DNA of 64,000 nt, taken from positions 27,319 through 91,318 of the forward strand of contig CAVXUH010000014.1 in the NCBI GenBank assembly GCA_963764885.1. The letters are read 5' to 3'. Both the position numbers and the translations under genes were made by a program. The notes beneath the pieces were generated by a model. The model ran no database searches, was not told the DNA's origin, and was given only the letters and a program-made list of their open reading frames with translations. Shown here one piece after another: positions 4,334 through 32,642 of this stretch. Origin of the DNA: Candidatus Aminicenantes bacterium (GTDB lineage: Bacteria > Acidobacteriota > Aminicenantia > Aminicenantales > UBA8522). Numbering within the stretch: the first letter of the stretch is position 1; each line of letters starts with the position of its first letter.

Positions 4334-5893
4334 ATGTCGAGAAGACTGATCATCGGCCTGACGGCCGTGGGGATCGCCGCCCTCTCACCGGCCGCGGCCC
4401 AGCAGACCAGCAAGTCCCTTTCACTCCGGGACTGCATCCTCGTCGCCCTCAGGAACAACCTGGGCGTCCACGTCGCCGTCCTGAGCCCGGACCTGGCGGA
4501 AGCGAACCTTGCTTGGGCCAGGGAAAAGTTCCTGCCGCGCCTGGCGTTCGGCTACAATAACCAGAGGACAAGCTCGGCCTCGTATTCCTGGATCGATGCC
4601 GCCGGCAGCGTCAACACCCGGTACAACGATCTCTCGGCGTCCGTTTCCCAGGCGATCCCGACCGGGGGCAGCGTGTCGGCATCGCTGAGCGGATACAAGA
4701 GCCAATCCAACCTCAAATTCCAGACCATCAACCCCCGCTATGGCAGCACCCTGAGCCTCAGCCTGAGCCAGCCCCTGCTCAGGAATTTCGGCCCGAAGAT
4801 GAGCCGGCGAGACATCCTCATCTCGCAGAACAACCGGGACATATCGGAGGGCCAGCTCCAGGCCGTCCTGCTCGAGACCATCTACGACGTCGAGCAGTCC
4901 TACTGGAACCTTATCTATGCCATCGAGAACCTGTCGGTCAAAAAGCAGTCGCTGGACCTGGCCAGGGACCTGGTGTCGAAAAACAGGCGCGAGGTGGAGA
5001 TCGGCATGGTGGCCCCGATCGAGCTCCTGAGCGCCGAAGCCGAAGTGGCCACCCGGGAGGCCGACATCCTCCAGGCTGAGGTCGCCGTCGCCAACAGCGA
5101 GGACGCGCTCAAGACCGTCATCAACATCGCTGCCGAGGAAGGCGGCGGGCTCGTCACCATCGTGCCGTCCGACAAACCCAGCCAGGAACGGCGGACGGTC
5201 AGCGTCGAGGAGGCCCTCCAGGCGGCGGTCAACAACCGCCCCGACCTGCAGGTGACGAGGATCAGCCTAAAAAACAAGGAACTCAACGTGGCTTATGCCA
5301 GGAACCAGGTCCTTCCCGACTTGAATCTTGTCGCTTCCTATTGGAGCCCCGGCCTCTCGGGAACACAGCTTCTCTACCTCAACAACGACCCGCTGACCGA
5401 TACCGTCATCGGCACCCTGCCCTCGGGGGCCGGGGCGGCACTCAGCCGGGCCCTCGGCCTCAAATACAATAACTGGGCGGTCGGCGTCCAGCTCAACCTT
5501 CCGGTGGCCAGCCTGCTGACCCGGTCGCAGTTCGAGGCGTCGAGGATCAGCTACGAGCAGTCGCTGGCCGACCTGGCCGATCTCGAGCAGCGCATCTTCC
5601 TGGAGATCCGGACCGCGGTCCGGGCGGTCGAAACCGACTTCAAGCGGGTCATGGCCTACAAGGCCGCCCGCGAGCTCGCCGAAAGCAAGCTGACGGCCGA
5701 GGTGAAGAAGCTCACGGTCGGCCTGACGACAAACTACGTTGTCCTCCAGTATCAGCGCGACCTGGCCGATGCCAAGACGGCCGAGCTGCGGGCGATCATC
5801 GAGTACAACCTGGCGCTGGCCTATCTCGACAAGTCCCTGGGGACGAGCCTCCTCAGCAAGAGCATCGAGTTCGCGCCGTTCCGGACTTCCTAG
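4334..5893 (+). CDS. TolC-family outer-membrane efflux channel
   Basis: GAGGAGG RBS 7 nt before ATG 4334, then a signal peptide. Two tandem OEP repeats with TolC-like spacing: SLSLRDCILVALRNNLGV...; SVEEALQAAVNNRPDLQVTRISLKNKELNVAYARNQVLPDLNL. Confidence 0.85.
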   Translation: MSRRLIIGLTAVGIAALSPAAAQQTSKSLSLRDCILVALRNNLGVHVAVLSPDLAEANLAWAREKFLPRLAFGYNNQRTSSASYSWIDAAGSVNTRYNDLSASVSQAIPTGGSVSASLSGYKSQSNLKFQTINPRYGSTLSLSLSQPLLRNFGPKMSRRDILISQNNRDISEGQLQAVLLETIYDVEQSYWNLIYAIENLSVKKQSLDLARDLVSKNRREVEIGMVAPIELLSAEAEVATREADILQAEVAVANSEDALKTVINIAAEEGGGLVTIVPSDKPSQERRTVSVEEALQAAVNNRPDLQVTRISLKNKELNVAYARNQVLPDLNLVASYWSPGLSGTQLLYLNNDPLTDTVIGTLPSGAGAALSRALGLKYNNWAVGVQLNLPVASLLTRSQFEASRISYEQSLADLADLEQRIFLEIRTAVRAVETDFKRVMAYKAARELAESKLTAEVKKLTVGLTTNYVVLQYQRDLADAKTAELRAIIEYNLALAYLDKSLGTSLLSKSIEFAPFRTS

Positions 5894-8052
5894 CCCCGGA
5901 TTTCAACCTCGTAGATCGACCAGAAGTACTCGGGGCTGCCCGAGGTCAGGACGATCCGGATGAACCGGGCGGGTCGGCGGGAAAAGACGATCCCGTAGGA
6001 GATGTCGTTGGCCCGAAGGTACTCGCGGATGGGAAGAAGCGGGGTTTCGAGGCGGACGGCTTCGGTCCAAGTCAGCCCGTCCGAGGACACTTCCACCCGG
6101 CAGCCGCGCGGGTAGTCGAACAGGCTCGGCCCGAGCTTGAGGCGCAGGCCGGAGACGTTCCGCACTTTCCCAAGATCCAGGAGGAACTCGTCGCCGGGCT
6201 TCTGAAACTCGGTGCTCCAGCGCGTTTTCATATCCCCGTCAACGGCGCGCGGGGCGAACTCGTTGTGGACGCTTGCCCGGGCCTGCCAGCCCGTCGCCCG
6301 GGAGGTGGCATCCTGGAGAGGCGCGCCCGGCGAAGGCTCGCGCGGGGTCGGCGTCGGCGAAAATTCGTACACCACATCATCGCCCAGCCGGCCCGCCTCG
6401 CGCACCGTCGTGGCCAGGCGGGCAAGCTCCGAGGCCAGGAGGCTGCGCGATTCCGCGGTGAATTCGGCCTCGTGGACAACGAGGTAGCGGACGCCGAGAT
6501 CGGCGGCGTCCTGGATGTTCTGCGCCACGGGAGCCTCCCGCCAGCGTCGAAGCAACTCATCATAAACCGGCGGGAAGAACCCGCTGTAGCCGTTCACCAG
6601 GTTGTGCCAATGGACGGTCGAGTAGTAAACACGCGGGCATTCGACAAGCCCGATCCCGAACCTGGGCGGGGGCAGTGGTATCTCCAGTACGGCGCCGTCG
6701 TTGTGCTGGGCGGCCAGCCACCGGTAGACTTCGGGGACGTTCCCGCCCGGGGGGAAATCCTCCAGGGGAATGGGGAAGGAGGCATACTCGGCCAGGATCA
6801 GGAGCGGCAAAAGGCACGAGATCAAGACCCGGCCTTTTCCCCGGAACTTGGCGATGAGCTGGCGGGAGCCGAAAGCCGCCAGCACGGAGAGTCCGAACAT
6901 GACGAAAATATGGAACCGAGCGGGGACGCGCAACCCGTTAAACCCGGGCAGGAATCTGTAGAGAAGGATGTACGGGCCGTTCGGACCGAAGGTAAAAAGA
7001 AAAGCGAGGAGCGTGATCGTGCCGTAAATCATGGCCATGACGGGTGGGGACGGTTCTGGCCTTGGGGACGTTCCCCACGCCGGGGAACGTCCCCAACGGG
7101 GAGCGCGCCGGTTCGCTGCCAGGGAAACGAACCCGGCCGCTGCCAGGAGAATGGCCAGTGCCCCGGGGAAAAGGTGCTTTTCCGGAGTCTGAAAGCGCGC
7201 TGTGAGACCGCCGTAGGCGCGGTTGAAGGGCGGGGCCGCCAGAAAACTTGTCAGGCTGGCAGGCGTACCGACATTCCGGAAAAAGCCCATATCCCTTCCC
7301 ACCCTGACATATTGATAGGCGAACGGCCCGGCCAGAAAGAGGATGATCGCGGCGGCCGCCAGCATGTCCCGCCAGAATCGCCGGTCCAGGATTTTCCTCT
7401 GCGCGACCGCCATATACAGGATAATGAGGCCGGCGAAAAAAGCCAGGTAAAGGGCGTAATAGCCGTTGGCAAGCGCCTGAAGGCCCGCCGCCAGCGCAAA
7501 AAAGATAATCTCGCGGGGCCGGCCGGTCTCGAAATAGCGATGGATAAAGAGAAAGGCCAGCGGGATCCCCGCCGCCGTGACGATCTGAATGTGGACGAAA
7601 TGGGAAAACATGAACGGCGAGAAAGCGAAGATGATCCCCGCCACGACCGCGGCGAAACGGCTTCCTGTCAGATGGCGCGCCAACGCATACATCCCCAGCG
7701 CCGATGTCAGGTAGGCCAGGAGGAGCATGATGTTGTGGGCGAGCAGCGGGTTCGAGGAGAATACCCGGATGGGAAGCGATGCCAACGATTGCGTAAAAAG
7801 GTGCTCCGAATAGGCCAGGGTCCGCCCGTTCGGGAAGAAGATATTGGCGTCGAAATAATGAGCAACGTCCAAGCGGGTCATCTCCCGGACGTTCCAGGAC
7901 ATGATCCAGGACGTCAGCAGGCCGTCCCCCAGGTCCCTTACGCCCGTGCCGAGCCGGAGAACCAGCGGGTACGTCATGACGAGAGTCACGAGAAGGAAGA
8001 GCGCCGGCACGGTCAGCCGCGAACTCATCGATTTCTTAGGGCGTATCGGCAT
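5890..8052 (-). CDS. GT-C-fold membrane glycosyltransferase-like protein (GT39/ArnT/PMT-like polytopic N-half) fused to a C-terminal F5/8 type C (discoidin) carbohydrate-binding domain
   Basis: 720-aa ORF with ~12 predicted TM helices in the N-terminal 430 aa. The soluble C-terminus ends in a discoidin-like domain (NEFAPRAVDGDMKTRWST...LRLKLGPS...WSIYEVEIRG). The start is ATG 8052 or 8028 (uncertain). The gene overlaps the tolC-like stop by 4 nt convergently. Confidence 0.6.
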   Translation of the reverse strand: MPIRPKKSMSSRLTVPALFLLVTLVMTYPLVLRLGTGVRDLGDGLLTSWIMSWNVREMTRLDVAHYFDANIFFPNGRTLAYSEHLFTQSLASLPIRVFSSNPLLAHNIMLLLAYLTSALGMYALARHLTGSRFAAVVAGIIFAFSPFMFSHFVHIQIVTAAGIPLAFLFIHRYFETGRPREIIFFALAAGLQALANGYYALYLAFFAGLIILYMAVAQRKILDRRFWRDMLAAAAIILFLAGPFAYQYVRVGRDMGFFRNVGTPASLTSFLAAPPFNRAYGGLTARFQTPEKHLFPGALAILLAAAGFVSLAANRRAPRWGRSPAWGTSPRPEPSPPVMAMIYGTITLLAFLFTFGPNGPYILLYRFLPGFNGLRVPARFHIFVMFGLSVLAAFGSRQLIAKFRGKGRVLISCLLPLLILAEYASFPIPLEDFPPGGNVPEVYRWLAAQHNDGAVLEIPLPPPRFGIGLVECPRVYYSTVHWHNLVNGYSGFFPPVYDELLRRWREAPVAQNIQDAADLGVRYLVVHEAEFTAESRSLLASELARLATTVREAGRLGDDVVYEFSPTPTPREPSPGAPLQDATSRATGWQARASVHNEFAPRAVDGDMKTRWSTEFQKPGDEFLLDLGKVRNVSGLRLKLGPSLFDYPRGCRVEVSSDGLTWTEAVRLETPLLPIREYLRANDISYGIVFSRRPARFIRIVLTSGSPEYFWSIYEVEIRG
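7062..7096. repeat. 35-bp perfect inverted repeat (15-bp arms TTGGGGACGTTCCCC / GGGGAACGTCCCCAA, 5-nt spacer) embedded in-frame in a CDS
   Basis: Read directly: TTGGGGACGTTCCCC ACGCC GGGGAACGTCCCCAA. It lies inside the GT-C gene, in a Pro/Ser/Trp-rich inter-helix loop (..GRSPAWGTSPRPEPSPP..). Confidence 0.8.
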
Positions 8053-23821: not shown

Positions 23822-23872
23822 GGCGGGGCGGACATTCCCCGGTTAAGGGAAACCGCGCGGAGGAGGCGCCCG

Positions 23873-26158
23873 ATGGGTAAAACATCCGGCCGGACAATCA
23901 TTATGCTATTATTTTGTTTATTATCAATTATTTACGCATGTATTGAGGGTTGGGCCCAGGGGCCATCGGGTCCTCCAGGACCGGGCTATCGCCTCTCCGT
24001 CGGTCCGGTGGCGAGCGTCTGGTGGGCCGAGGGGGTTTATAAGATTATGAGGACCGATCCCGTCCCGGATGCGCGGTCGACCGGCGTCACCCTGTTCGCC
24101 GCTCGGAACGAATATGAGCCTTTCATTCTTGTCCTCAGGCCGGAACGGAGGCTGGACAGGGTCCGGGTGGAATGCGGTCCGCTGGCCGGCCCCGGCGGCG
24201 CCGTTATCCCCTCATCGCGGGTCTCCGTCTGCCACGTCGGTTACGTCGAAGTGACGGTCCCGACCGACGCTGCGGGCGCGGCGGGCGAATGGCCCGACCC
24301 GCTGCCTCCCTGCGAAGGACCGTTTACGGCCGCCGCCGGGGAAAACCACCCTCTCTGGATAACGGTCTTCGTCCCCCCCGACGTCCCGGGCGGCGATTAC
24401 ACCGGCCAGGTCCGACTGACGGCCGGTCCCTGGCTGAGCGAGGTTTCCGTCACGCTCAGGGTCTGGGATTTCGGCCTGCCGCGGGAACCTCATCTCCGCT
24501 CGTCCTTCGGCACGTCCGCAGGCTTGATACGCCTCTACCATAACCTCGAGACCGGAGAAGAACTCGAACGGGTGGCGGACCTCTACTATCAAAATTTCCG
24601 CGACCATCGGCTGGCGCCCCGCGACCCCATGGAGCTCTACCCGATGCGCGTCAGCGTCAGGGGGGTGGGCTGGCGCGGCGGCGAGTTCAGCGGCGAGGCG
24701 CCGCATTCGGGAAAGCGCGCCATCAGGGCGGCCGATGATTCGGTGTCGGGCGACTGCGAGGTCACCTGCGAAAACCGCATCCCGGTCGCCGGGGGAACGC
24801 CCTATAAGCTGACGTGGTTTGCCAGGACGGCCGCCGCCGGCCAGAAATACACGGCGCTCATCCAAGGCTACGACGCCGAGGGCGGATTCGAGCCCGCCTG
24901 GAACCGGCTGGCGCTCGTCGAAGGGTCCACGGAGTGGAAAGAGGGCGTGATCGAGATCGCGGCCTTCGCACCCGAGGTCAGGTCGGTCAGCATTCATTTT
25001 TTCCCCACGTTCCGGGATGAGGCGGGAACGGCGACCGGCACCGCCTTCTTCGATGACGTCCGCTTCGGGCCGGCCGGCGACGGGGCGAACCTCCTCCGGG
25101 GCGGGGACATCGAGATGGATCCGTCCGGGATGTCGGTCGAAGTGGACTGGACCGATTTCGACCGTGGCGCCCGGCGCTGCCTCGACGAGTTGGGGTTCAA
25201 CGCCTTCGACCTGCGGCTCGAGGGCCTGGGTTCGGGCTCATTCTACAGCCGGAAGAAGGGCATTTTTGCGGGCTTCCCCCAGGGGACACCCGAGTACGAC
25301 AGCCTGATGGGCCGCTACCTGGCGCAGGTCGAGCGGCATCTGGAGCGAAATGGCTGGCTGGGCAAGGAGTACATCTATTGGTTCGACGAGCCCGACCCGA
25401 AGGATTATCCGTTCGTGCGGGAGGGGATGGTCGACATCAGGAAAGCGGCGCCCCGGCTGACGCGGTTCATCACCGAGCACCGGCCCGGCCCCGACATCAT
25501 GGACGTGAGCGAGGTCAGCTGCACGATCTTCGACCGCGTCGATCCGAAGACCGTGGCCGAGCTCGGCGCCCGAGGCCGCGAGTTCTGGTCATACCTCTGC
25601 ACAGGGCCCAAGGCGCCCTGGGTTACGCTGTTCATCGACCACCCCGCCGTGAACCTCCGGCTCTGGCCCTGGATGTCCTACAAGTTCGGGCTGAAGGGGA
25701 TCCTGGTCTGGGAGGCGATGTACTGGACGAGCGGCAACGTGTTTCCGGAGGACCGCCCGCAGAACCCGTGGTCGGACCCGATGTCCTACACGAGCGGGTA
25801 CGGGACGCCTTACGGCGAAGTCAAGTACTGGGGGAACGGCGACGGGCGGTTCATCTATCCTCCGAACAGGAACGTGGGCGAGGACAAAACGAAATACCTC
25901 GGCGGACCCGTCAACTCCGTGCGCTGGGAGATATTGAGGGAGGGCCTCGAGGATTACGAATATCTCCGGCTTCTCGAGCGGGCGGTCAAGAACGCGCCCA
26001 AGAAACATAAGGCCCTGGCCGCCCAGGGCAAACGGCTCCTCGACATCCCGCCCGCGCTGTTCGCGAGCAGCCGGGAATATACCAAAGACCCTCGGCTGAT
26101 CCTGGATTACCGGAAGCGGATCGGGGACATTCTGGCGGCGTTCTCGGCCGCCGAGTAA
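23873..26158 (+). CDS. secreted glycoside-hydrolase-like protein, paralog of 17464-20657 (GH123/DUF4091-like, tentative)
   Basis: GGAGGAGG RBS 7 nt before ATG 23873. The N-terminal signal-peptide region is encoded by an anomalously AT-rich stretch. Motifs are shared with the paralog (..VFVPPDVPGGDYTGQV.., ..WEILREGLEDYEYLRLL..). Confidence 0.6.
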   Translation: MGKTSGRTIIMLLFCLLSIIYACIEGWAQGPSGPPGPGYRLSVGPVASVWWAEGVYKIMRTDPVPDARSTGVTLFAARNEYEPFILVLRPERRLDRVRVECGPLAGPGGAVIPSSRVSVCHVGYVEVTVPTDAAGAAGEWPDPLPPCEGPFTAAAGENHPLWITVFVPPDVPGGDYTGQVRLTAGPWLSEVSVTLRVWDFGLPREPHLRSSFGTSAGLIRLYHNLETGEELERVADLYYQNFRDHRLAPRDPMELYPMRVSVRGVGWRGGEFSGEAPHSGKRAIRAADDSVSGDCEVTCENRIPVAGGTPYKLTWFARTAAAGQKYTALIQGYDAEGGFEPAWNRLALVEGSTEWKEGVIEIAAFAPEVRSVSIHFFPTFRDEAGTATGTAFFDDVRFGPAGDGANLLRGGDIEMDPSGMSVEVDWTDFDRGARRCLDELGFNAFDLRLEGLGSGSFYSRKKGIFAGFPQGTPEYDSLMGRYLAQVERHLERNGWLGKEYIYWFDEPDPKDYPFVREGMVDIRKAAPRLTRFITEHRPGPDIMDVSEVSCTIFDRVDPKTVAELGARGREFWSYLCTGPKAPWVTLFIDHPAVNLRLWPWMSYKFGLKGILVWEAMYWTSGNVFPEDRPQNPWSDPMSYTSGYGTPYGEVKYWGNGDGRFIYPPNRNVGEDKTKYLGGPVNSVRWEILREGLEDYEYLRLLERAVKNAPKKHKALAAQGKRLLDIPPALFASSREYTKDPRLILDYRKRIGDILAAFSAAE
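23917..23934 (+). repeat. AT-rich 18-mer TTTATTATCAATTATTTA (copy 1 of 2)
   Basis: Identical 18-nt AT-only string recurs at 29748-29765 in the same orientation. It is very unlikely by chance in a ~67% GC window. Confidence 0.8.
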
Positions 26159-26190
26159 GATGGGAAAAGCGGCGCTCCGGAGGTAAAGGC

Positions 26191-26832
26191 GTGAGGGCAG
26201 GGGAGGGTCATCTGGAAAAGCTGGACCCGGCTATCGAGAAGCTGGGAGTCAAGAAAATTTATCGGGCCGATACTTTTCTTTTTCACGCCAAGGACGAGGC
26301 CAAGGGGTTTTTCTATGTGAAGCAGGGAGGGGTTCGCGTCTTCAGGATGGACAAAGACGGCCGGGAGATGGAGATCGTCCGGCTCGGACCGGGGGATTTT
26401 TTCGGGGAGGCGGTAGCCATCGTCGGGGGCAGCTTTCCCGCCTATGCGAGGGCAACGGAAGAAACCAAAGTCATCTATTTCGACCGCCGGGAGATGCTGC
26501 TCAGCATCGGGCGGGACCCGGCGGCGGCGCGGTTCTTCCTGAAGCTCCTCGCCGGCAAGTGCCTCATCCTCAACGAGCGGATCGAGTCGTTGGGGCTGCT
26601 GAGCGTCCGGCAAAGACTCGCGCGGTATCTTCTCTCCTGCTGCGCCGGCGAGCCGAGCTGTCGGGTCGAACTCCAGACCAAGAAAGGCGACCTCGCCAGG
26701 CAGCTCGGCATCGTCAGCGAGACGCTGTCGCGGAACCTCAGGGAGTTGGAGGATGAAGGCCTGATCCAGGTCAAGGGAAGGAGCATCCGCGTCATGGACT
26801 GCCTCAGGCTGAAGCGAGAGCTACCCGAATAG
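26191..26832 (+). CDS. Crp/Fnr-family transcriptional regulator (cNMP-binding domain + C-terminal HTH)
   Basis: GGAGGTAAAGGC RBS before GTG 26191. cNMP-binding beta-roll (..GDFFGE..), a dimerisation helix, and a C-terminal HTH (ARQLGIVSETLSRNLRELEDEGLI). Confidence 0.85.
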   Translation: MRAGEGHLEKLDPAIEKLGVKKIYRADTFLFHAKDEAKGFFYVKQGGVRVFRMDKDGREMEIVRLGPGDFFGEAVAIVGGSFPAYARATEETKVIYFDRREMLLSIGRDPAAARFFLKLLAGKCLILNERIESLGLLSVRQRLARYLLSCCAGEPSCRVELQTKKGDLARQLGIVSETLSRNLRELEDEGLIQVKGRSIRVMDCLRLKRELPE

Positions 26833-26914
26833 GGGTGCCGCTCGCGGGGAGACTGAGGCCTCCTCGCGCCCCTTCCGACATATCCACCCGGGAGAGCGGT
26901 TGGCAGGCTGAATT

Positions 26915-26928
26915 TTGACCCGAGTCAA
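26915..26928 (+). promoter_or_regulatory. FNR/FixK-type box TTGAC-N4-GTCAA centred at -41.5 of a TATACT -10 (class II Crp/Fnr-dependent promoter)
   Basis: TTGACccgaGTCAA at 26915-26928. The -10 TATACT is at 26951-26956 and the predicted TSS ~26963 puts the box centre at -41.5. AGAGGAG RBS, then ATG 26989. Confidence 0.55.
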
Positions 26929-26988
26929 GGAACGGGCAAAGGCGTTGAGTTATACTAGCAAGAGGATATCAAGAGGAGTCGAAGGCCC

Positions 26989-27787
26989 ATGGCAAAAAGG
27001 AAGATCATCGAGATCGAAAGAGATCTATGCGACGGCTGCGGTCTGTGCACCACGGCCTGCGCCGAGGGCGCGCTGGCCCTGGATGAGGAGGGCAAGGCCG
27101 TGCTGGTCAGGGAAATCTACTGCGATGGACTGGGCGCCTGCCTGGATGTCTGTCCGACGGGCGCGCTCAAGATCGTCGAAAGGGAGGTCTCAGGCTACGA
27201 CCCGGCGGCGGCTTATCGTCACGTCTTGAAGACGCGGGGAGCCGACGCAGCGGCCAAGGTCCATGGCGCCGATGATCTGAAGGCAGGGGGAACACCGGCT
27301 GAAGGAAGGCCCGGCGAGCGCCAGCAAGGGCCCAACGGCCGCCGGTTCGCCCCAAGAGCCGTAAGTTCCGCCGGCCGGCAGCCTCTTGCCCGCGGTTGTC
27401 CCGGAAGCGCGGCCCGGGAGATACCGCGGGAGAAGTCGGAGGCGGGCGCCCCAACGGACCGTCTCCGGTGCCTCAGAGCTTCGCCAGTGGCCGATCCAGC
27501 TCCACTTCGTATCTCCCTACGCGCCCTATTTCAAGGAAGCGGATTTGCTGATCGCGGCCGACTGCACGGCCTTCTCGCTGGGCAGCTTCCATCAGGACCT
27601 GCTCAAGGGCAAGATGCTGGTCATCGCCTGCCCCAAGCTCGACGAGACCGAAGGTTACGTCGACAAGCTCTCGGAGATCGTCCGGGAGAATCGCCCCAAG
27701 TCCCTGACCGTCGCCATCATGACGGTTCCCTGCTGCTCCGGTCTGTTCAGGATGGTCGAAGAGGCCGTCCATCAGCTCGGGAGTTGA
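26989..27787 (+). CDS. 4Fe-4S dicluster ferredoxin-domain protein with a conserved C-terminal CxxC...PCC domain; frameshifted (at least 1-2 indels)
   Basis: N-terminus [60 protein letters not shown] (two Cx2Cx2Cx3CP-type motifs). The C-terminal part, in another frame (ORF-track 27386..27787), reads ..[49 protein letters not shown]...TVPCCSGL.. This matches a widespread anaerobe family of 4Fe-4S-dicluster proteins with a C-terminal Cys-rich domain (assigned by sequence similarity). Confidence 0.6.
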
Positions 27788-28149
27788 CCTGCCCGTCGAA
27801 AAGAGAGGTGATCCATATCGACGGCCGGTTCACGCGCACTGACGGCGCCGGCGTAGTGGCCGTACCGGCGCCAAGTCCGGGAACCGGACACTCATTGGCT
27901 TAGTTTACAGCGATCTGAGATCAGCGTAGATTCGAGCGGGACGACATTCGGGATAATGGATATTGCTATTTGAGAATTAAGCAGCATCAACCGTCGAGGG
28001 CAGGCTATACGGTCAATAGTCCAGGTCGGAAATTGTCGGGTTATCAAGAAATTCACGCCTCGTCGCGTGCCGAGATACTGCGGGAATACTACGATATCGC
28101 GGCATCAGAAGCGATTCACGCCCGGGATCCAGGGCCAATCGTCCGAGGA

Positions 28150-29545
28150 TCAACGCGGGACGGTGCGGCACCGCTCGAAGGCTCCAGCGTGTCCCGGCTC
28201 CGCTCGCTTTTTCCAGAAGAAATAGGCGGGCAGGCCGGCCAGGATCATGGCCAGGCCGAGCGCCGAGTTCCGGGGCTCGGACAACAGGCGGTTCATGAAT
28301 ACCGCCAGGTTCACTCCGATAAATATAATGGGCACGACCGGATAGCCCCAGGCCCGGTAGGGCCGCGGAATATCCGGGCGCCGGATCCGGAGCACGATCG
28401 ACCGCCGCTCCCGTGGCTGCGAAAAACAGCACGAGCGCGAAGATCACGTATTCGAAAAGGGCCTGGTAGGTTCCCGTCAAGCACAGAAATCCCGACCAGA
28501 CCGCCTGGGCGATGATGGCCCGGCCGGGCACATGGTAGCGCGGGTGGATCCGGCCCATCTTCTTGAAAAACAGCCCGTCTTCGGACATCGCATAGTAGAC
28601 CCGCGGGCCGTAAAGTATCGTCGCGCTCAGGCAGCCGAAGATCGAAGCCAGGATCGCCGCGGCGATCACCGAGCCCGATCGCCGTTCCGAACATGGTCGT
28701 TGCCGCCAGCTCTCCGATGCGGACGACCCCGCTCATGTCCGCGACTGGGACGGCGGCGAGATAGAGCGCATTCATCAATACGTAGACCGCCGTGACCGCC
28801 GCGGTCCCCAGGAACAGGCTCAAGGGAATCGTGGTCTGCGGCGTCTTGATCTCGCCGGCGGCGCAGTTCACCGAATACCAGCCGTCATAAGTCCAGAGCG
28901 CCGCAAAGATCGCCAGGCCGAAGGATGCCGAGAGACACGCCGCCGTCAAAACTCATGAGCGCGGCCGGGGTGGGGGAGACCGGCCTTTTTGCCCGAGGAG
29001 CCAGCCGGCGACCAGGAACACCACCAGGCCGCCGACCCGGATGACAGTGAACACGTTCTGGACCAGGATCCCACCGCGGATACCGAAATAATTGACCGCC
29101 GACAGCGCCGCGATCAGGACCAGGGCGACGACCTGGCCCCACGCTGATGGTGCACGGATAGCTCGCCGACCGGAATGCTCAGGATCGCGGCGCTGATTGC
29201 GAGAGCCCGGGCAGGAAATAGCCCAGGTATTCCGAAAATCCGACGGCCAGGGCCGCGATCCCACCTCCCATGATCATCCAGAAAAACGCCCAGCCGAACA
29301 GAAAGCCGGTCAAGTCGCCATAGGCCTCCTTGAGATACACGAACTGGCCGCCGGCCCGGGGAAACATGGCGCGCCAGCTCGCCGAAAGAAAGGGCGCCGA
29401 AAAGGGTGATCAGTCCGCCGGCCGCCCATACGAGAAGGACGGCACCCGGCGACCGCACGAGCTCGACGATGATGCCCGTCGTCATGAAGATGCCCGAGCC
29501 GATGACGCTCCCCATCACGAGGAGCGTCGCGTCCCAAAGAGTCAT
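28150..29545 (-). pseudogene. APC-superfamily amino-acid permease, reading frame broken at least 5-6 times (pseudogene or assembly indels)
   Basis: Consecutive minus-strand ORF-track ORFs (29114..29572, 29179..29367, 28953..29264, 28311..28949, 28013..28669, 28150..28395) together spell a ~12-TM APC permease: MTLWDATLLVMGSVIGSGIFMTTG.. / ..FPRAGGQFVYLKEAYGDLTGF.. / ..NYFGIRGG.. / ..GEIKTPQTTIPLSL.. / ..YGPRVYYAMSEDGLFF.. Confidence 0.6.
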
Positions 29546-29747
29546 GACGCGCTCGAAGCCCGGGCTTCTCATTCATTCCTAGCACCGTCCAAGTTTTCGC
29601 GATTATAAAGGAACTCCTGCGCAAGTTCAAATTCACGCTCGCATCGATGAGACCTACGGCGTTCTCTTCAGACCGTTCTTTATTCCTGACGCCATTTTTC
29701 AAACCGCCAACATCATCCGTCCCGGAGAAAATTAGCTTTATATCTTT

Positions 29748-29765
29748 TTTATTATCAATTATTTA
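29748..29765 (+). repeat. AT-rich 18-mer TTTATTATCAATTATTTA (copy 2 of 2)
   Basis: Identical to 23917-23934. It lies in the AT-rich parA upstream region, immediately 5' of a TATAAT hexamer and the 20-bp palindrome. Confidence 0.8.
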
Positions 29766-29768
29766 TAT

Positions 29769-29788
29769 AATGTCGGCATGCCGACATT
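29769..29788. promoter_or_regulatory. perfect 20-bp palindrome AATGTCGGCATGCCGACATT overlapping a TATAAT hexamer, ~145 nt upstream of parA (candidate operator or centromere-like site)
   Basis: Read directly: tatAATGTCGGCATGCCGACATTctc, with the TATAAT at 29766-29771. It is not the canonical parS (TGTTNCACGTGAAACA). Confidence 0.5.
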
Positions 29789-29931
29789 CTCAGACTCCGA
29801 CACCCGTCACGTTTCTTTTATTCTTTACTTTGCCCGGCGCGTTGCCCCCGTCTGCACCTTGCGCCTCTTCCATCGATCAGAAGTCCCGTTCGATATTTTT
29901 TCTTGCATTTTACTTTTTCCTCCATTATCCT

Positions 29932-30740
29932 ATGTTCCATTCTCGGAACGCGACCGACGCCTTGGAGGATTCGTTGATCATCGCGATCACCAATCAAAAG
30001 GGCGGAGTGGGGAAGACCACGACGGCCCTCAATGTCTCCGCAGGCCTGGCCTTGATGGGCTACCGGATGCTCCTCATCGATACCGACCCCCAGGCTCATA
30101 GCAGCAGCTCCTGTCTTAACGATTCGTCCGCCTATGCCAAGTCCCTCTACGATATTCTCGTCCACCCCCAGGACAGCATCGAGACCATCATCGCCAAGTC
30201 CACCATACCCGGCCTCGATGTCGCCGTCTCGAGGATCTCCATGGCCAAGCTCGAGCCGGCGCTCCTCGGCGAGATCGACGGCCACTATCGTCTGAAGGAT
30301 ATCATCCAGCCGATCCTGCCGAAATACGATCACATCGTGATCGATACGCCGCCGACCCTCGGCCTGATCACCATGAATTCACTTGTCGCCGCTACCCATA
30401 TTCTGATCCCCATCCAATCCTCCTTCCTGTGCCTGGAGGGCACGGACGATCTCCTCGAAACGATCGACAAGGTCAAGCGGGTCGCCAACCCGCAGCTTCA
30501 GCTCCTCGGGCATCCTGATCACCCTCCACGACAAGCGCACCAACATCTCGCGGGACGTCGTCAAGAGAATCCGCAAGGTCTTCGGCGACCTCGTTTTCAA
30601 GACCCTGATCTCGAAAAGCGTCAAGCTCGAGGAGAGCCCGGCTTATAAGGAATCCATCTTCACATACGCTCCCGAATCCGTCGGAGCCGTTCCAGTACCG
30701 GAAAATCGCCGAGGAGATAATCGAACGTGCTAAAAACTAA
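29932..30740 (+). CDS. parA: ParA/Soj-family partitioning ATPase; two frameshifts near the 3' end (~30510, ~30680)
   Basis: Deviant Walker A IIAITNQKGGVGKTTTALNVSAGLA, ..LLIDTDPQAHSS.., ..IVIDTPPTLG.. The ORF-track frame derails at ..QLQLLG. Shifted frames give ..ILITLHDKRTNISRDVVKRIRKVFGDLVFKTLISKSVKLEESPAYKESIFTYAPES.. and then ..[14 protein letters not shown] with TAA at ~30738-30740. The first shift is at a ctcGGGcat G-run. Confidence 0.8.
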
Positions 30741-31564
30741 ACGATCCGGCCTGCCCGATACGCTCGTCATGCGCCACGACGATCACTTCGTCGACCTGAT
30801 TTCGGCCCGGATCACCGGCCCCGACCATCCGCATGATCCCGCTCGACCGCATCGACCCCAATCCCCAGCAGGCCCGGAGCGAACTCGGCAACATCGAGGA
30901 GCTCATGTCCTCGATCAAGTCCAAGGGTGTCCTCGAGCCGATTCTCGTCCGCCCCGGAACGACCGGTACGAGATCATCGCCGGTGAGCGACGCTATGTCG
31001 CCTCGAAGCGCGTCGGCCTCAAGGAGATCCCCGCCATCGAGATGCACGTCAAGGATAACGAGGCCCTGGAGATGGCGCTCATCGAAAACGTCCAGCGCAA
31101 GGACCTGGGCGTCTTCGAGGAGGCCGACGGGCTCAAGGCTCTGATCGATATCTACGGCTATAACCACAACCAGCTCGCCGAAAAGATCGGCAAGGCCCGC
31201 TCGACGATCACCGAGATCATCAACGTCGCGCAGATCCCCAAGCGGCTGCGCGAGCCTCTGCGCCGAATATGACATCACGAGCCGTAGCATGCTCATCGAG
31301 ATCGCCAAGCTCGATAAGGAAGAGGACATGGAGAAGCTGATCACGCAGATCAGCCAGCGCGGCCTCCGCCGCGAGGATACCCGCGAGCTGTCCAAGAAGC
31401 TCAAGGGCAAGCAGAGACACACCCGGCCGTTCATTTTCAGCTATTCGCCGGCCGCCAACGATTATTATCATCTCCGCCTGGAATTCAAGAAGCACTCGGT
31501 CGACAACACCGAGATCATCCAGGTTCTCGAAGAGATCATCACCCGCCTTAAATCCAAACGCTGA
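30727..31564 (+). CDS. parB: ParB/Spo0J-family partitioning protein; at least 3 frameshifts
   Basis: GTG 30727 overlaps the parA end. ORF-track 30727..31272, 30833..31144 and 31289..31564 join as ..[40 protein letters not shown] / ..[52 protein letters not shown].. / ..[12 protein letters not shown]...RLKSKR*. The ParB box II GERRxRA motif is present. Confidence 0.8.
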
Positions 31565-32642
31565 CAAGACGCCGGCCGCGGCGCGAAGGGCAGGGGCCTT
31601 AACCTTGCCCCTCTCCGTAAAAAGTACTTAGTTGACATAATATCTGTTATGCGACGCATATCGCGGCGCCTCCCATATCAGGCTTCCTATCAGGTGCTTG
31701 GAGTAATTCACAGGCTGTGGATATCCCGACTGCCCTGGTTTTGGGCAATTGTGGATATCCGCCGTCCGTCGGCATATCCTGGGAGGCTCAATGTCGGCGC
31801 TCCGCCCGGCGACGACGATCCGTTCACCATCAACGCCCCCCATCAATCGAGCGTTCTACCGCCTGCGGGGCGAGCGTTCCTGCGGCAACAAATCCAATTC
31901 TGGCGTGCATGGCCGTCAGAGGGCTGCGCGGGGATTACGCGGTCGATGGCGGCGGCCCCGCCCATATGAGTTGCCGGATTCATGTCAAGGGTCTCTCGGC
32001 CGCGTCATCAGCCAGGCCCCGGCGCCCACTTTCGATCTCCCCGCCGCGTGGGCACCGGGAAGTAGCTTCGGCAGAGGCCCCTGATCTGAGCCCCGGGGGG
32101 CCTCCTTGCGCTCTGTGTCACAATTGGAGCCGACGACAATACGCTCTGAATAAAGGCGCCTGCCAGGCAGGGCATTCCCCCGGCCCGCCTATCTATCGGG
32201 CCCCCTCCCCTGCCGAATACCGCCAAAACGGGCCCCTTATGGGGCTCCCAGCCAGAAACGGCTGTTTTTTTACGGGAACCACGGCCAGCCCCCTTGGCGG
32301 GCACGGGGCGGAATACCGATACGGGAACACATCCGGCTGTCTTAAGCCCCTGTGTGCGAGACTTTGGGCTCTAAAGAGCGTGAATTCTCAGGGTTGAGTC
32401 CCCCTCTGACAGCCGATTTCCGGCCACGCCGGAGCGAAACAGTAGGACTTTTGTGCTCGCAGAGCCATTTTTCCGGACGCTAAACCCCGAATTGCGGCTC
32501 CTTGGGAGCCGCATCAAGCGCCCTAATCGCATAAAGGATGCCTCGCGCGCAGAGATCAGCCCGGATTGTCGGGGCAGGAATTTAAAAAAAGGCGTAGAGG
32601 ATGAATCCCGGTCGACGGCAGTCCGTGATCCGGGACGGGGCC
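31565..32642. other. ~1.08-kb gene-free GC-rich region between convergent parB and rho; candidate non-coding RNA locus or decayed gene
   Basis: No ORF in any frame resembles a protein; the listed ORFs are low-complexity GC artefacts. The region contains a TTGACA hexamer at 31632-37, several strong hairpins, and a terminator-like element at 32232-32271. Confidence 0.4.
32232..32271 (+). terminator. intrinsic-terminator-like element: GCCCC-TTAT-GGGGC hairpin, then CAGCC-AGAAAC-GGCTG hairpin followed by T7
   Basis: acgGGCCCCttatGGGGCtccCAGCCagaaacGGCTGTTTTTTTacggg on the plus strand. No annotated plus-strand gene ends here, which implies an unannotated plus-strand transcript within the gap. Confidence 0.45.

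Follow-up and report, generated by a model that had tools for sequence, protein, structure and literature searches.

The stretch of DNA analysed here (64 kb, hereafter the window) carries a block in which the TGase, ADI, GH123b, crp, Fer4, permease, parA and parB genes follow one another, an order that is common to more than 20 Aminicenantes loci. The features of this block that are relevant to the present study are listed in Table 1. The GH123b gene is preceded by the SD sequence GGAGGAGG (positions 23859-23866, 6 nt 5' of the ATG). An in-frame ORF that runs into parA (29647-30648) is peculiar to the window and is not conserved. The original prediction had described a broken permease gene between the two repeats studied below; the interruption of this gene is probably an assembly artefact, because parB, rho and GH123a are likewise broken by 1-nt indels in the window and are intact in the relatives.

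Table 1. Positions in the window of the repeat copies and of neighbouring features
Feature	Position	Strand	Basis or remark
GH123b, GH family 123 catalytic-domain protein, 761 aa	23873..26158	+	Pfam PF13320 (GH123_cat), E = 6e-24
Predicted Sec signal peptide of GH123b, MGKTSGRTIIMLLFCLLSIIYACIEGWAQG	23873..23962	+	n/h/c-region layout
c1 conserved block, ~26 nt (T-rich 8 nt + 18-mer)	23909..23934	+	alignment, column consensus
Copy 1, core of c1	23917..23934	+	in frame, (TG)T TTA TTA TCA ATT ATT TA(C), C-L-L-S-I-I-Y
Permease promoter-like site (divergent), TTGAAC-17-TATAAT	29602..29630	-	conserved block distinct from c2
c2 conserved block, ~26 nt	29740..29765	+	near-fixed spacing to palindrome
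Copy 2, core of c2, non-coding	29748..29765	+	stops in the equivalent frame in most relatives
Perfect 20-bp palindrome AATGTCGGCATGCCGACATT, 16-bp core TGTCGGCATGCCGACA	29769..29788	.	candidate non-canonical parS
parA promoter-like block, TTGCAT-17-TATCCT	29903..29931	+	alignment; conserved; read from sequence
parA, TTG start, SD GGAGGA at 29964-29969	29974..30648	+	sequence and alignment of relatives

The 18-mer TTTATTATCAATTATTTA has exactly two exact matches in the window, copy 1 and copy 2, both on the + strand, and a search allowing up to three mismatches still returned these two copies only. The original prediction had reported an AT-only 18-mer present twice in direct orientation and had considered its chance recurrence negligible. 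Both direct copies were recovered, and none of 100 dinucleotide shuffles yielded a match; however, the string is 17/18 A/T and not AT-only, as position 9 is a C, and this C9 is among the most strongly conserved positions of the element. In the window, the GC content of which is 63%, no AT-rich patch is longer than these two stretches. As had been proposed, copy 1 lies within the first ~25 codons of the GH-like gene, where it spans codons 15-21 (CLLSIIY) in frame. Copy 2 was correctly placed just 5' of a TATAAT and the palindrome, but the TATAAT is not kept in relatives. The ungapped similarity between the copies reaches upstream to cover 52 nt (73%), the extension itself matching at 20/34 positions. 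As copy-1/copy-2 pairs taken across different genomes reach a maximum of 21/34, this extension is no better than cross-genome pairs and provides therefore no evidence for a longer duplication.

In the syntenic loci, both copies of the motif recur at these positions and with this orientation. Consensus sequences derived separately from the c1 and the c2 sites, the window's own copies being left out, were identical: TTTATTATCAATAACTTA. The consensus of the entire element consists of 8 T-rich nucleotides followed by TTTATTATCAATAACTTA, with a high information content at ATCAA and at T17, positions 12-15 being the least conserved. When ~270 kb of clade DNA was scanned on both strands with a position weight matrix, only c1 and c2 reached scores of at least 22 bits, all of them on the + strand. 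c1 is gone from two loci, L173 and L177, without visible consequence. Taken together, these results show that a single, orientation-specific cis-element of ~26 bp has been conserved in two orthologous copies, c1 and c2. The identity of the two copies within a genome (14.09/18) is close to that across genomes (13.89/18; permutation p = 0.30). Gene conversion or antisense pairing, suggested by an early impression of covariation in the window, L001 and L082, was discarded, since this impression vanished with 11 genomes (the same p = 0.30). There is no concerted evolution, and the 18/18 identity seen here is therefore a coincidence of two near-consensus sites, which agree at the four variable positions, and not a recent duplication; the probability that draws from the two site profiles agree at all 18 positions is 0.005.

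At the 5' end of the GH123b orthologues, the c1 block is the only strongly conserved island of DNA in the alignment. Within it, the Leu codons are invariably TTA (24/24), compared with 8/756 (1.1%) in the remainder of the gene, and the Ser codons invariably TCA (14/14), compared with 34/519 (6.6%). Where GH123b homologues are encoded elsewhere, in a different genomic context, their signal peptides are ordinary and GC-rich. c1 persists as intergenic DNA after the loss of GH123b: L176, which is the sister of the GH123b-bearing L112 in the ParA+ParB tree, has no GH123b gene and retains TTTATTATCAATAATTTA in its ADI-crp spacer of ~80 nt, with the best score found (36.7 bits), and in L169 c1 persists within a decayed GH123b remnant. 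Copy 1, which provides the LLSIIY codons, is selected as DNA, at the nucleotide level. This constraint freezes the synonymous sites of TTA TTA TCA, and the peptide LLSI.Y is therefore fixed in an otherwise fast-evolving signal peptide. These results demonstrate that c1 is written over the codons for the hydrophobic core of the GH123b signal peptide, signal peptides being the one type of coding sequence in which a T-rich site is tolerated.

c2 is one of just four conserved blocks in the otherwise free-evolving permease/parA spacer. Beside it, the 14-bp core of the palindrome, GTCGGCATGCCGAC, is unchanged in 19/19 loci, at a distance from c2 of 6 nt in the window, 7 nt in most relatives and 5 nt in L173. 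The conserved parA promoter-like block lies ~140 nt downstream of copy 2, and its spacing to c2 and the palindrome varies among genomes. As shown by these comparisons, c2 and the invariant 20-bp palindrome constitute one unit, separate from both promoters. A leader peptide or ORF at copy 2 was rejected, as the equivalent frame carries stops in most genomes.

Three origins of the repeat had been put forward in the original prediction. A dispersed repeat finds no support, neither the 64-kb window nor ~270 kb of related loci yielding further copies. Direct repeats left by insertion or recombination are not supported either, as the gene order is ancestral to the clade and no indel is bounded by the repeat; the synteny comparison that had been proposed showed that relatives with the same gene order also carry the repeat. 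The third, a shared site for a regulator or a nucleoid protein, is the sole survivor, in agreement with the orthologous positions, the common consensus and orientation, and the nucleotide-level selection. The DnaA-box-like core to which attention had been drawn fared less well: the window contains 4 DnaA boxes for 3.7 expected, and boxes resembling TTATCCACA (up to one mismatch) form no cluster, none being located within 400 nt of either copy.

In Proteobacteria, IHF sites follow the consensus WATCAANNNNTTR, an example being the H' site of lambda attP, TTATCAATTTGTTG. Both copies of the window match this proteobacterial consensus at 13/13 positions, and these are the only two strict matches in the 64 kb, for 0.25 expected. 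In 344 kb of clade DNA, strict matches were found 13 times at c1, 6 times at c2 and 3 times elsewhere, that is, at 13/16 c1 and 6/19 c2 sites, most c2 sites being one mismatch short. Conservation is confined to the ATCAA and TTR blocks, and the 4-nt gap between them, which corresponds to the Ns of WATCAANNNNTTR, is free. Because its conserved and variable columns fit the IHF consensus, our best guess is that the element may serve as a conserved cis-acting site at which an IHF/HU-type (DNABII) nucleoid-associated protein binds and bends the DNA, an assignment that we propose tentatively. The bend that such a protein would introduce at c2 would fall beside the palindrome, the putative ParB loading site (parS) of the lineage, and this arrangement would be reminiscent of plasmid P1, in which parS contains an IHF site; in the P1/P7 centromere parS, the IHF site lies between ParB boxes. 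The bend at c1 would fall at the ADI/GH123b(/crp) junction; the role of a bend inside a coding region is not obvious. No DNABII (IHF/HU) gene was found within the window or the relatives' loci examined. Sigma-54 promoters, as possible partners of IHF, are represented by 9 matches for 16 expected, none of them nearby, and no other classical IHF partner was found near the copies.

We examined the palindrome as a candidate non-canonical parS, and it may be an unusual chromosome-partition site: as for parS, its core is 16 bp long, near parAB, conserved and present in 1-2 copies. The canonical parS TGTTNCACGTGAAACA, at up to three mismatches, is absent from the window and from all parAB-carrying loci of the clade that were examined. 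The ParB encoded here is of the chromosomal Spo0J type (TIGR00180), and its recognition helix is atypical yet clade-invariant. In the ParB/Noc specificity code, R173 reads G1 of the site and R201 reads C6, and ParB and Noc both keep N178 and R204 (PMC7383237). The ParB of the window has R173 and, as in Noc, R201, although the alignment at position 201 is gapped by one of three templates, and the palindrome has G1 and C6. This ParB also carries E178 and L204, the substitutions N178E and R204L being unprecedented in the ParB/Noc alignment of PMC7383237; the assignment of positions 201 and 204 rests on the alignment that is gapped by 1/3 templates. Half-sites of the palindrome are not enriched in the window, and a scan of viral contigs returned one match, coding and unrelated. 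An intrinsic terminator was rejected, as the palindrome has no U-tract. Literature searches retrieved no paper containing the palindrome string and nothing relevant on Aminicenantes signal peptides. A wider model, which we regard as rather unlikely, would make TGTCGGCATGCCGACA the non-canonical chromosomal parS of a re-specified Aminicenantes ParB (R173, I179, R184, R201, E178, L204) and the AT-rich element an accessory DNA-bending site of the centromere, as IHF provides for P1 parS; the second copy, 1.4-6 kb off, would delimit the partition complex, or the ParB sliding zone, on its other side, dictating the codons of the signal peptide and outliving the gene.

We asked whether the element might instead be the operator of a sequence-specific transcription factor (FNR/CRP-type or another helix-turn-helix protein) that controls both parAB and the GH123b/crp block. 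The copies flank a crp/fnr gene whose product has an FNR-like E..SR helix, several c1 sites read TTGTT-TATT-ATCAA (9/10 to the FNR box), the c2 site of L161 is a perfect TTGAT-TATT-ATCAA, and c1 of L176 is located ~50 nt 5' of the crp start codon. However, conservation does not extend to the left half-site: position 1 is T in 78% of the sites, and the G is missing from most c2 sites. The element is also asymmetric, as the TTA at 16-18 has no mirror partner. Moreover, the local Crp has a clear target of its own, TTGAC-N4-GTCAA, centred at -41.5 upstream of the Fer4 gene, a box that accompanies crp in every locus that has this gene; L001 and L166 have neither crp nor the box, yet they keep c1 and c2. 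Because of these two loci and the separate FNR box, the local Crp/Fnr was rejected as the binder, and a conserved dyad TTGAT-N4-ATCAA co-occurring with its regulator, as defines an FNR/CRP box, was not found. An operator of this kind is thus doubtful.

The element might also be the core of a promoter, with TATTAT as its -10-like hexamer and AT-rich DNA as its upstream element; under this reading, c2 would be a second parA promoter, the transcript of which starts at the palindrome (operator or 5' hairpin), and c1 an internal promoter for crp-Fer4. In almost all copies positions 3-8 read TATTAT, TATTTT, TAATAT or TATAAT, with T1, A2 and T6 invariant, the c1 site of L176 lies ~50 nt 5' of the crp ATG, and the palindrome would form a 5' hairpin of -12 kcal/mol (z = -2.9). 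We nevertheless consider a promoter quite unlikely: the + strand has no conserved -35 or extended -10 TG and the - strand no conserved partner hexamer, so that the pair of conserved -35 and -10 hexamers 16-18 nt apart that characterizes sigma-70 promoters was not found, and the strongest conservation (C9, A10 and T17) falls outside any promoter hexamer. In addition, parA has its distinct conserved promoter-like block downstream, and a transcript starting at c1 would yield a GH123b mRNA without a start codon. An antisense promoter, TTGATA-16-CATAAT at copy 1, was rejected, as it is specific to the window and absent at copy 2 and in relatives.

That the element acts as RNA, through pausing at rare codons (TTA TTA), as an AU-rich sequence bound by an RNA-binding protein or as the target of an sRNA, common to the GH123b mRNA and a parA leader, appears improbable. 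It would account for the strict + strand orientation, c1 is certainly transcribed and no other Leu codon in these genes is nearly as rare as TTA. However, c2 is untranslated and lies upstream of the parA promoter-like block and downstream of the divergent promoter, and therefore no obvious + strand transcript covers c2 in most genomes; Rfam returned no match above noise (sub-threshold rseX, E = 0.34), and the within-genome covariation that pairing partners would give is absent. Even less plausible is the absence of any shared function, in which case the AT-richness of c1 would simply be that of a signal peptide and c2 would be an intergenic AT-rich patch unrelated to it, or both would have been left by an ancient local duplication. 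Signal peptides and 5' coding regions of high A/T content are frequent, hydrophobic residues are encoded by T-rich DNA, and there are just two copies per locus, but the two sets have an identical 18-nt consensus in genomes that share only 60-80% identity in their GH123b proteins, the synonymous sites of c1 are frozen, c1 outlives complete gene loss and c2 is among only four conserved blocks of its spacer. Finally, insertion direct repeats or att-like sites around a mobile or excisable 5.8-kb segment are scarcely credible: the copies are in direct orientation and the content between them varies, GH123b, crp and permease each missing in some genomes, but the segment and its surroundings contain neither an integrase nor a transposase, the composition of the segment is not deviant, the losses are piecemeal deletions (e.g., the GH123b remnant of L169) and not precise excisions, the empty-site product (a hybrid copy joining ADI to the palindrome) was seen in none of ~25 loci, and the flanking gene order is ancestral.

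These results bear on three questions. With regard to overlapping codes, c1 is a clear case from nature of a signal in the DNA that is written over signal-peptide codons. With regard to segregation, the palindrome and the atypical, clade-invariant helix of ParB point to a candidate main-chromosome parS that departs from a near-universal sequence, and the G1/C6 combination of the palindrome is that predicted by the published ParB/Noc specificity code. With regard to annotation, the exact repetition of an AT-rich sequence does not necessarily imply mobility when the genome is GC-rich, a question settled here by comparative synteny.

The core of the palindrome, TGTCGGCATGCCGACA, resembles canonical parS and the Noc site NBS (PMC7383237) in its 16-bp length, perfect symmetry, outer TGT...ACA and location beside parAB; however, the central ten bases differ, only the outer TGT/ACA being common. 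The putative bending site resembles proteobacterial IHF sites in that it has an AT-rich 5' flank, is asymmetric, orientation-specific and ~26-30 bp long, and its conserved and variable columns follow the IHF consensus across 35 Aminicenantes sites. It differs in that its 5' flank is a T-tract, whereas that of lambda H' is an A-tract, in that one Aminicenantes copy lies inside codons, with no att site, sigma-54 promoter or origin adjoining, and in its host, an uncultured Aminicenantes lineage. As in P1/P7 parS, an element matching the IHF consensus lies 5-7 bp from a putative ParB-binding palindrome beside parA; in contrast to P1, the ParB is of the Spo0J type, the bend site flanks a single palindrome instead of separating two arms, and c1 has no palindrome. 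Lastly, c1 freezes synonymous sites as do other dual-use codons, in which protein sites are embedded in coding sequence; however, whereas this can rarely be demonstrated elsewhere, the constraint on c1 demonstrably outlives the gene, as seen in L176.

The 18-mer pair is a genuine, non-random feature of the window, a piece of the chromosome of an uncultured Aminicenantes bacterium. Aminicenantes MAGs supply the top protein matches of the window; a GH123 (glycoside hydrolase family 123) protein of 100% identity was found on a 106-kb NCBI/ENA contig. The genes are ordered GH123a (−), transglutaminase-like, ADI/DDAH-like, GH123b, crp/fnr and Fer4 (a 4Fe-4S protein gene), followed by an amino-acid permease gene (−), parA, parB, rho (−), lon (−) and clpX (−). 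No third 18-mer site is present in the window even at 3 mismatches, 100 shuffled controls gave 0 matches, and nowhere else in this 63%-GC sequence is an AT-rich patch as long as at the two sites. The original prediction of two direct copies was thus correct, but the string is not AT-only as had been stated, position 9 being a C. Copy 1 does lie in the early codons of GH123b, in frame (codons 15–21, CLLSIIY), and copy 2 between the permease gene and parA, which diverge from a 400-nt spacer. The order in which copy 2 is followed by a TATAAT and a palindrome also held; however, the TATAAT is not conserved in relatives.

Features of the window and of the aligned permease/parA spacers
Feature	Position	Strand	Remark
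18-mer TTTATTATCAATTATTTA, copy 1	23917-23934	+	exact match
18-mer TTTATTATCAATTATTTA, copy 2	29748-29765	+	exact match
GH123b	23873-26158	+	holds copy 1
FNR-type box TTGACCCGAGTCAA (TTGAC-N4-GTCAA)	26915-26928		upstream of Fer4
Fer4 -10 hexamer TATACT	26951-26956		Fer4 ATG at 26989
Palindrome AATGTCGGCATGCCGACATT	29769-29788		20 bp, invariant, beside parAB
parB indels	30819-30823, ~30950, ~31254		versus intact orthologues
Indel-split rho	32.6-34.0 kb		
Indel-split permease	28.0-29.6 kb		
Indel-split GH123a	17.4-20.7 kb		
Spacer block: permease promoter-like TTGAAC-17-TATAAT		−	alignment and scan
Spacer block: AT element + AATGTCGGCATGCCGACATT			alignment
Spacer block: parA promoter-like TTGCAT-17-TATCCT			alignment
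Spacer block: parA SD sequence + TTG start			alignment

Synteny was compared across about 25 related loci, collected from species-representative genomes, metagenomes and exact-protein look-ups. The order TGase-ADI-GH123b-crp-Fer4-permease-parA-parB-rho-lon (TGase, transglutaminase-like; ADI, ADI/DDAH-like) is common to the clade, whose GH123b proteins are 60–80% identical to that of the window. Relatives that span both syntenic places carry close variants of the 18-mer there, i.e., in the GH123b signal peptide (c1) and 5–7 nt upstream of GTCGGCATGCCGAC before parA (c2); c1 is gone from the loci L173 and L177, and the element is therefore not indispensable. When a weight matrix of the sites was run on both strands of ~270 kb of clade DNA, only c1 and c2 scored at least 22 bits, always on the + strand, and the suggestion of an unclassified dispersed repeat was rejected on this basis. 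The proposal of direct repeats left by insertion or recombination fails as well, as the gene order is clade-wide, both sites are kept, and no integrase or transposase is present in or near the segment. The pair very probably represents a conserved, orientation-specific DNA element occupying two syntenic sites.

The 18/18 identity seen in the window does not reflect recent duplication or conversion. The consensus sequences of the c1 and c2 sets, calculated apart and with the window left out, are the same (TTTATTATCAATAACTTA). The probability that one draw from the c1 profile and one from the c2 profile agree at each of the 18 positions is 0.005, which places the window in the upper tail of two sites independently near one consensus. 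An early impression that the copies co-vary within genomes failed a permutation test (c1/c2 identity of 14.09/18 within genomes versus 13.89/18 across genomes; p = 0.30, 11 genomes). Without gaps, copies 1 and 2 remain alike over another 34 nt on the upstream side (73% over 52 nt in all), but this extension (20/34 in the window) is equalled by copies from different genomes (pairs of up to 21/34) and hence carries no weight.

Copy 1 is selected as DNA. Its peptide lies inside a plausible Sec signal peptide, 3' of a strong Shine-Dalgarno sequence, and LLSI[ST]Y ends otherwise unrelated signal peptides in many GH123b orthologues, a peptide that is shared because the constraint is at the nucleotide level. 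Within the motif, Leu is encoded by TTA in 24/24 cases and Ser by TCA in 14/14; elsewhere in these genes (GC3 ~0.8), TTA accounts for 8 of 756 Leu codons and TCA for 34 of 519 Ser codons. The c1 motif is the sole conserved DNA island in the GH123b 5' region, at variable distances from the start codon and from the mature protein, and in other Aminicenantes, where GH123b homologues occupy different genomic contexts, the signal peptides are ordinary and GC-rich. The decisive case is the locus L176 (GCA_964558915.1), which has no GH123b yet keeps TTTATTATCAATAATTTA, the top-scoring copy of all, in the ~80-nt spacer between ADI and crp. A ParA+ParB tree places L176 and the GH123b-bearing L112 as sisters, so that the absence of the gene in L176 is a secondary loss. 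The L169 locus retains c1 in a GH123b remnant (5630–5975) with large internal deletions. Loss of GH123b occurred more than once in the clade, independently in several lineages (L169, L173, L176 and L177), and L176 retains nothing of the gene except the AT-rich element.

Copy 2 is non-coding, and c2 contains stop codons in the c1 frame in most genomes. Alignment of 15 permease/parA spacers revealed four conserved blocks amid freely evolving DNA of variable length. The AT element and the palindrome survive without the permease gene in L112 and L176, and are kept in L177 despite a wholly different upstream neighbourhood, which indicates that this module belongs to the par locus. In the window genome only, an ORF with an ATG start (29647–30648) crosses copy 2 and the palindrome and continues in frame into parA, reading ...ISFLLSIIYIMSACRH... 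in the codon phase of copy 1; this ORF is probably fortuitous, since relatives have stops across it.

In the window, parB, rho, the permease gene and GH123a are interrupted by 1-nt indels, some of them in C-runs, whereas the orthologues in relatives are intact. The rho and parB genes are normally essential. These indels are probably long-read assembly errors, and the permease described as broken is therefore likely an artefact and not a pseudogene. Assembly errors may also be behind the copy 2-palindrome spacing of 6 nt instead of 7 nt.

We then considered the identity of the AT element. The IHF consensus, WATCAANNNNTTR, was derived from Proteobacteria. The strict form of this proteobacterial consensus matches the window at the two copies only, versus 0.25 matches expected, and 344 kb of clade DNA contain 13 matches at c1, 6 at c2 (copy 2 is often one mismatch away) and 3 elsewhere. 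Column conservation of the element mirrors the consensus, with hardly any variation at ATCAA and T17 and the most at the four positions in between, and the AT-rich 5' flank and the asymmetry are also IHF-site-like. By sequence, an IHF site is thus the best match. No DNABII gene was found in any fetched DNA. The proposal of a shared nucleoid-protein binding site is supported as to its kind, and the best-supported mechanism is that the element may be bound by an IHF/HU-type nucleoid-associated protein that bends DNA.

Other identities were rejected. For a sigma-70 promoter, a -10-like TATTAT is conserved but a -35 is conserved on neither strand; an antisense promoter-like match at copy 1 occurs in this genome only, and no sigma-54 promoter was found near the element. 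The FNR reading was rejected for want of conservation in the left half-site. Crp from this locus is not a convincing binder, as it has its own box elsewhere and the loci L001 and L166 keep c1 and c2 without crp or box. The DnaA-box-like core was dismissed, DnaA boxes not being enriched, and an Rfam search of the element returned nothing.

The FNR-type box before Fer4 is present in every locus with an adjacent crp/fnr and absent in L001 and L166. The TATACT hexamer predicts a start ~41.5 nt downstream of the centre of the box, and the Fer4 promoter is likely of the class II Crp/Fnr-activated type.

Beside c2, GTCGGCATGCCGAC is identical in 19/19 loci. A second copy of the palindrome is located between the converging Fer4/permease 3' ends in L001 (13148), L081 (6366), L082 (13844), L162 (12580) and L166 (10555). 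We found no paper containing the palindrome string. 3' of parB are two GTGGATAT repeats (31716–31724 and 31750–31758, 34 nt apart), DnaA-box-like (8/9) on the − strand; near them are the palindrome half-sites GTCGGCAT and AATGTCGGC (31768–31775 and 31790–31799) and an AT-rich patch (31618–31650).

The neighbouring parB encodes a genuine member of the ParB/Spo0J family (TIGR00180, 144 bits) with GERRY and ENLQR motifs. No canonical parS with up to 3 mismatches is present in the window or in any parAB-bearing clade locus. The ParB recognition region is atypical: ten residues followed by [IV]NVARIP...SRS[TM]LI replace GKSRSxVANxLRLLxLP...GHARALL, and the 120 closest Aminicenantes ParBs share this region with occasional single substitutions only. 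In Caulobacter numbering, R173 is kept, with N178E, T179I, A184R, G201R and R204L, positions 201–204 being gapped in 1/3 template alignments. According to Jalal et al. (PMC7383237), guanine 1 of the parS half-site is read by R173 and cytosine 6 by R201, the Noc state; R...R variants that carry a permissive basic residue favour a hybrid G1/C6 site. The palindrome half-site, T-G-T-C-G-G-C-A, contains both G1 and C6, as the ParB/Noc code predicts for R173 and R201, which makes the 16-bp core a credible candidate for a non-canonical chromosomal parS. If this is true, copy 2 would be a bend site directly next to the place where ParB loads. The putative bend site beside the palindrome is reminiscent of P1 parS, which contains an IHF site.
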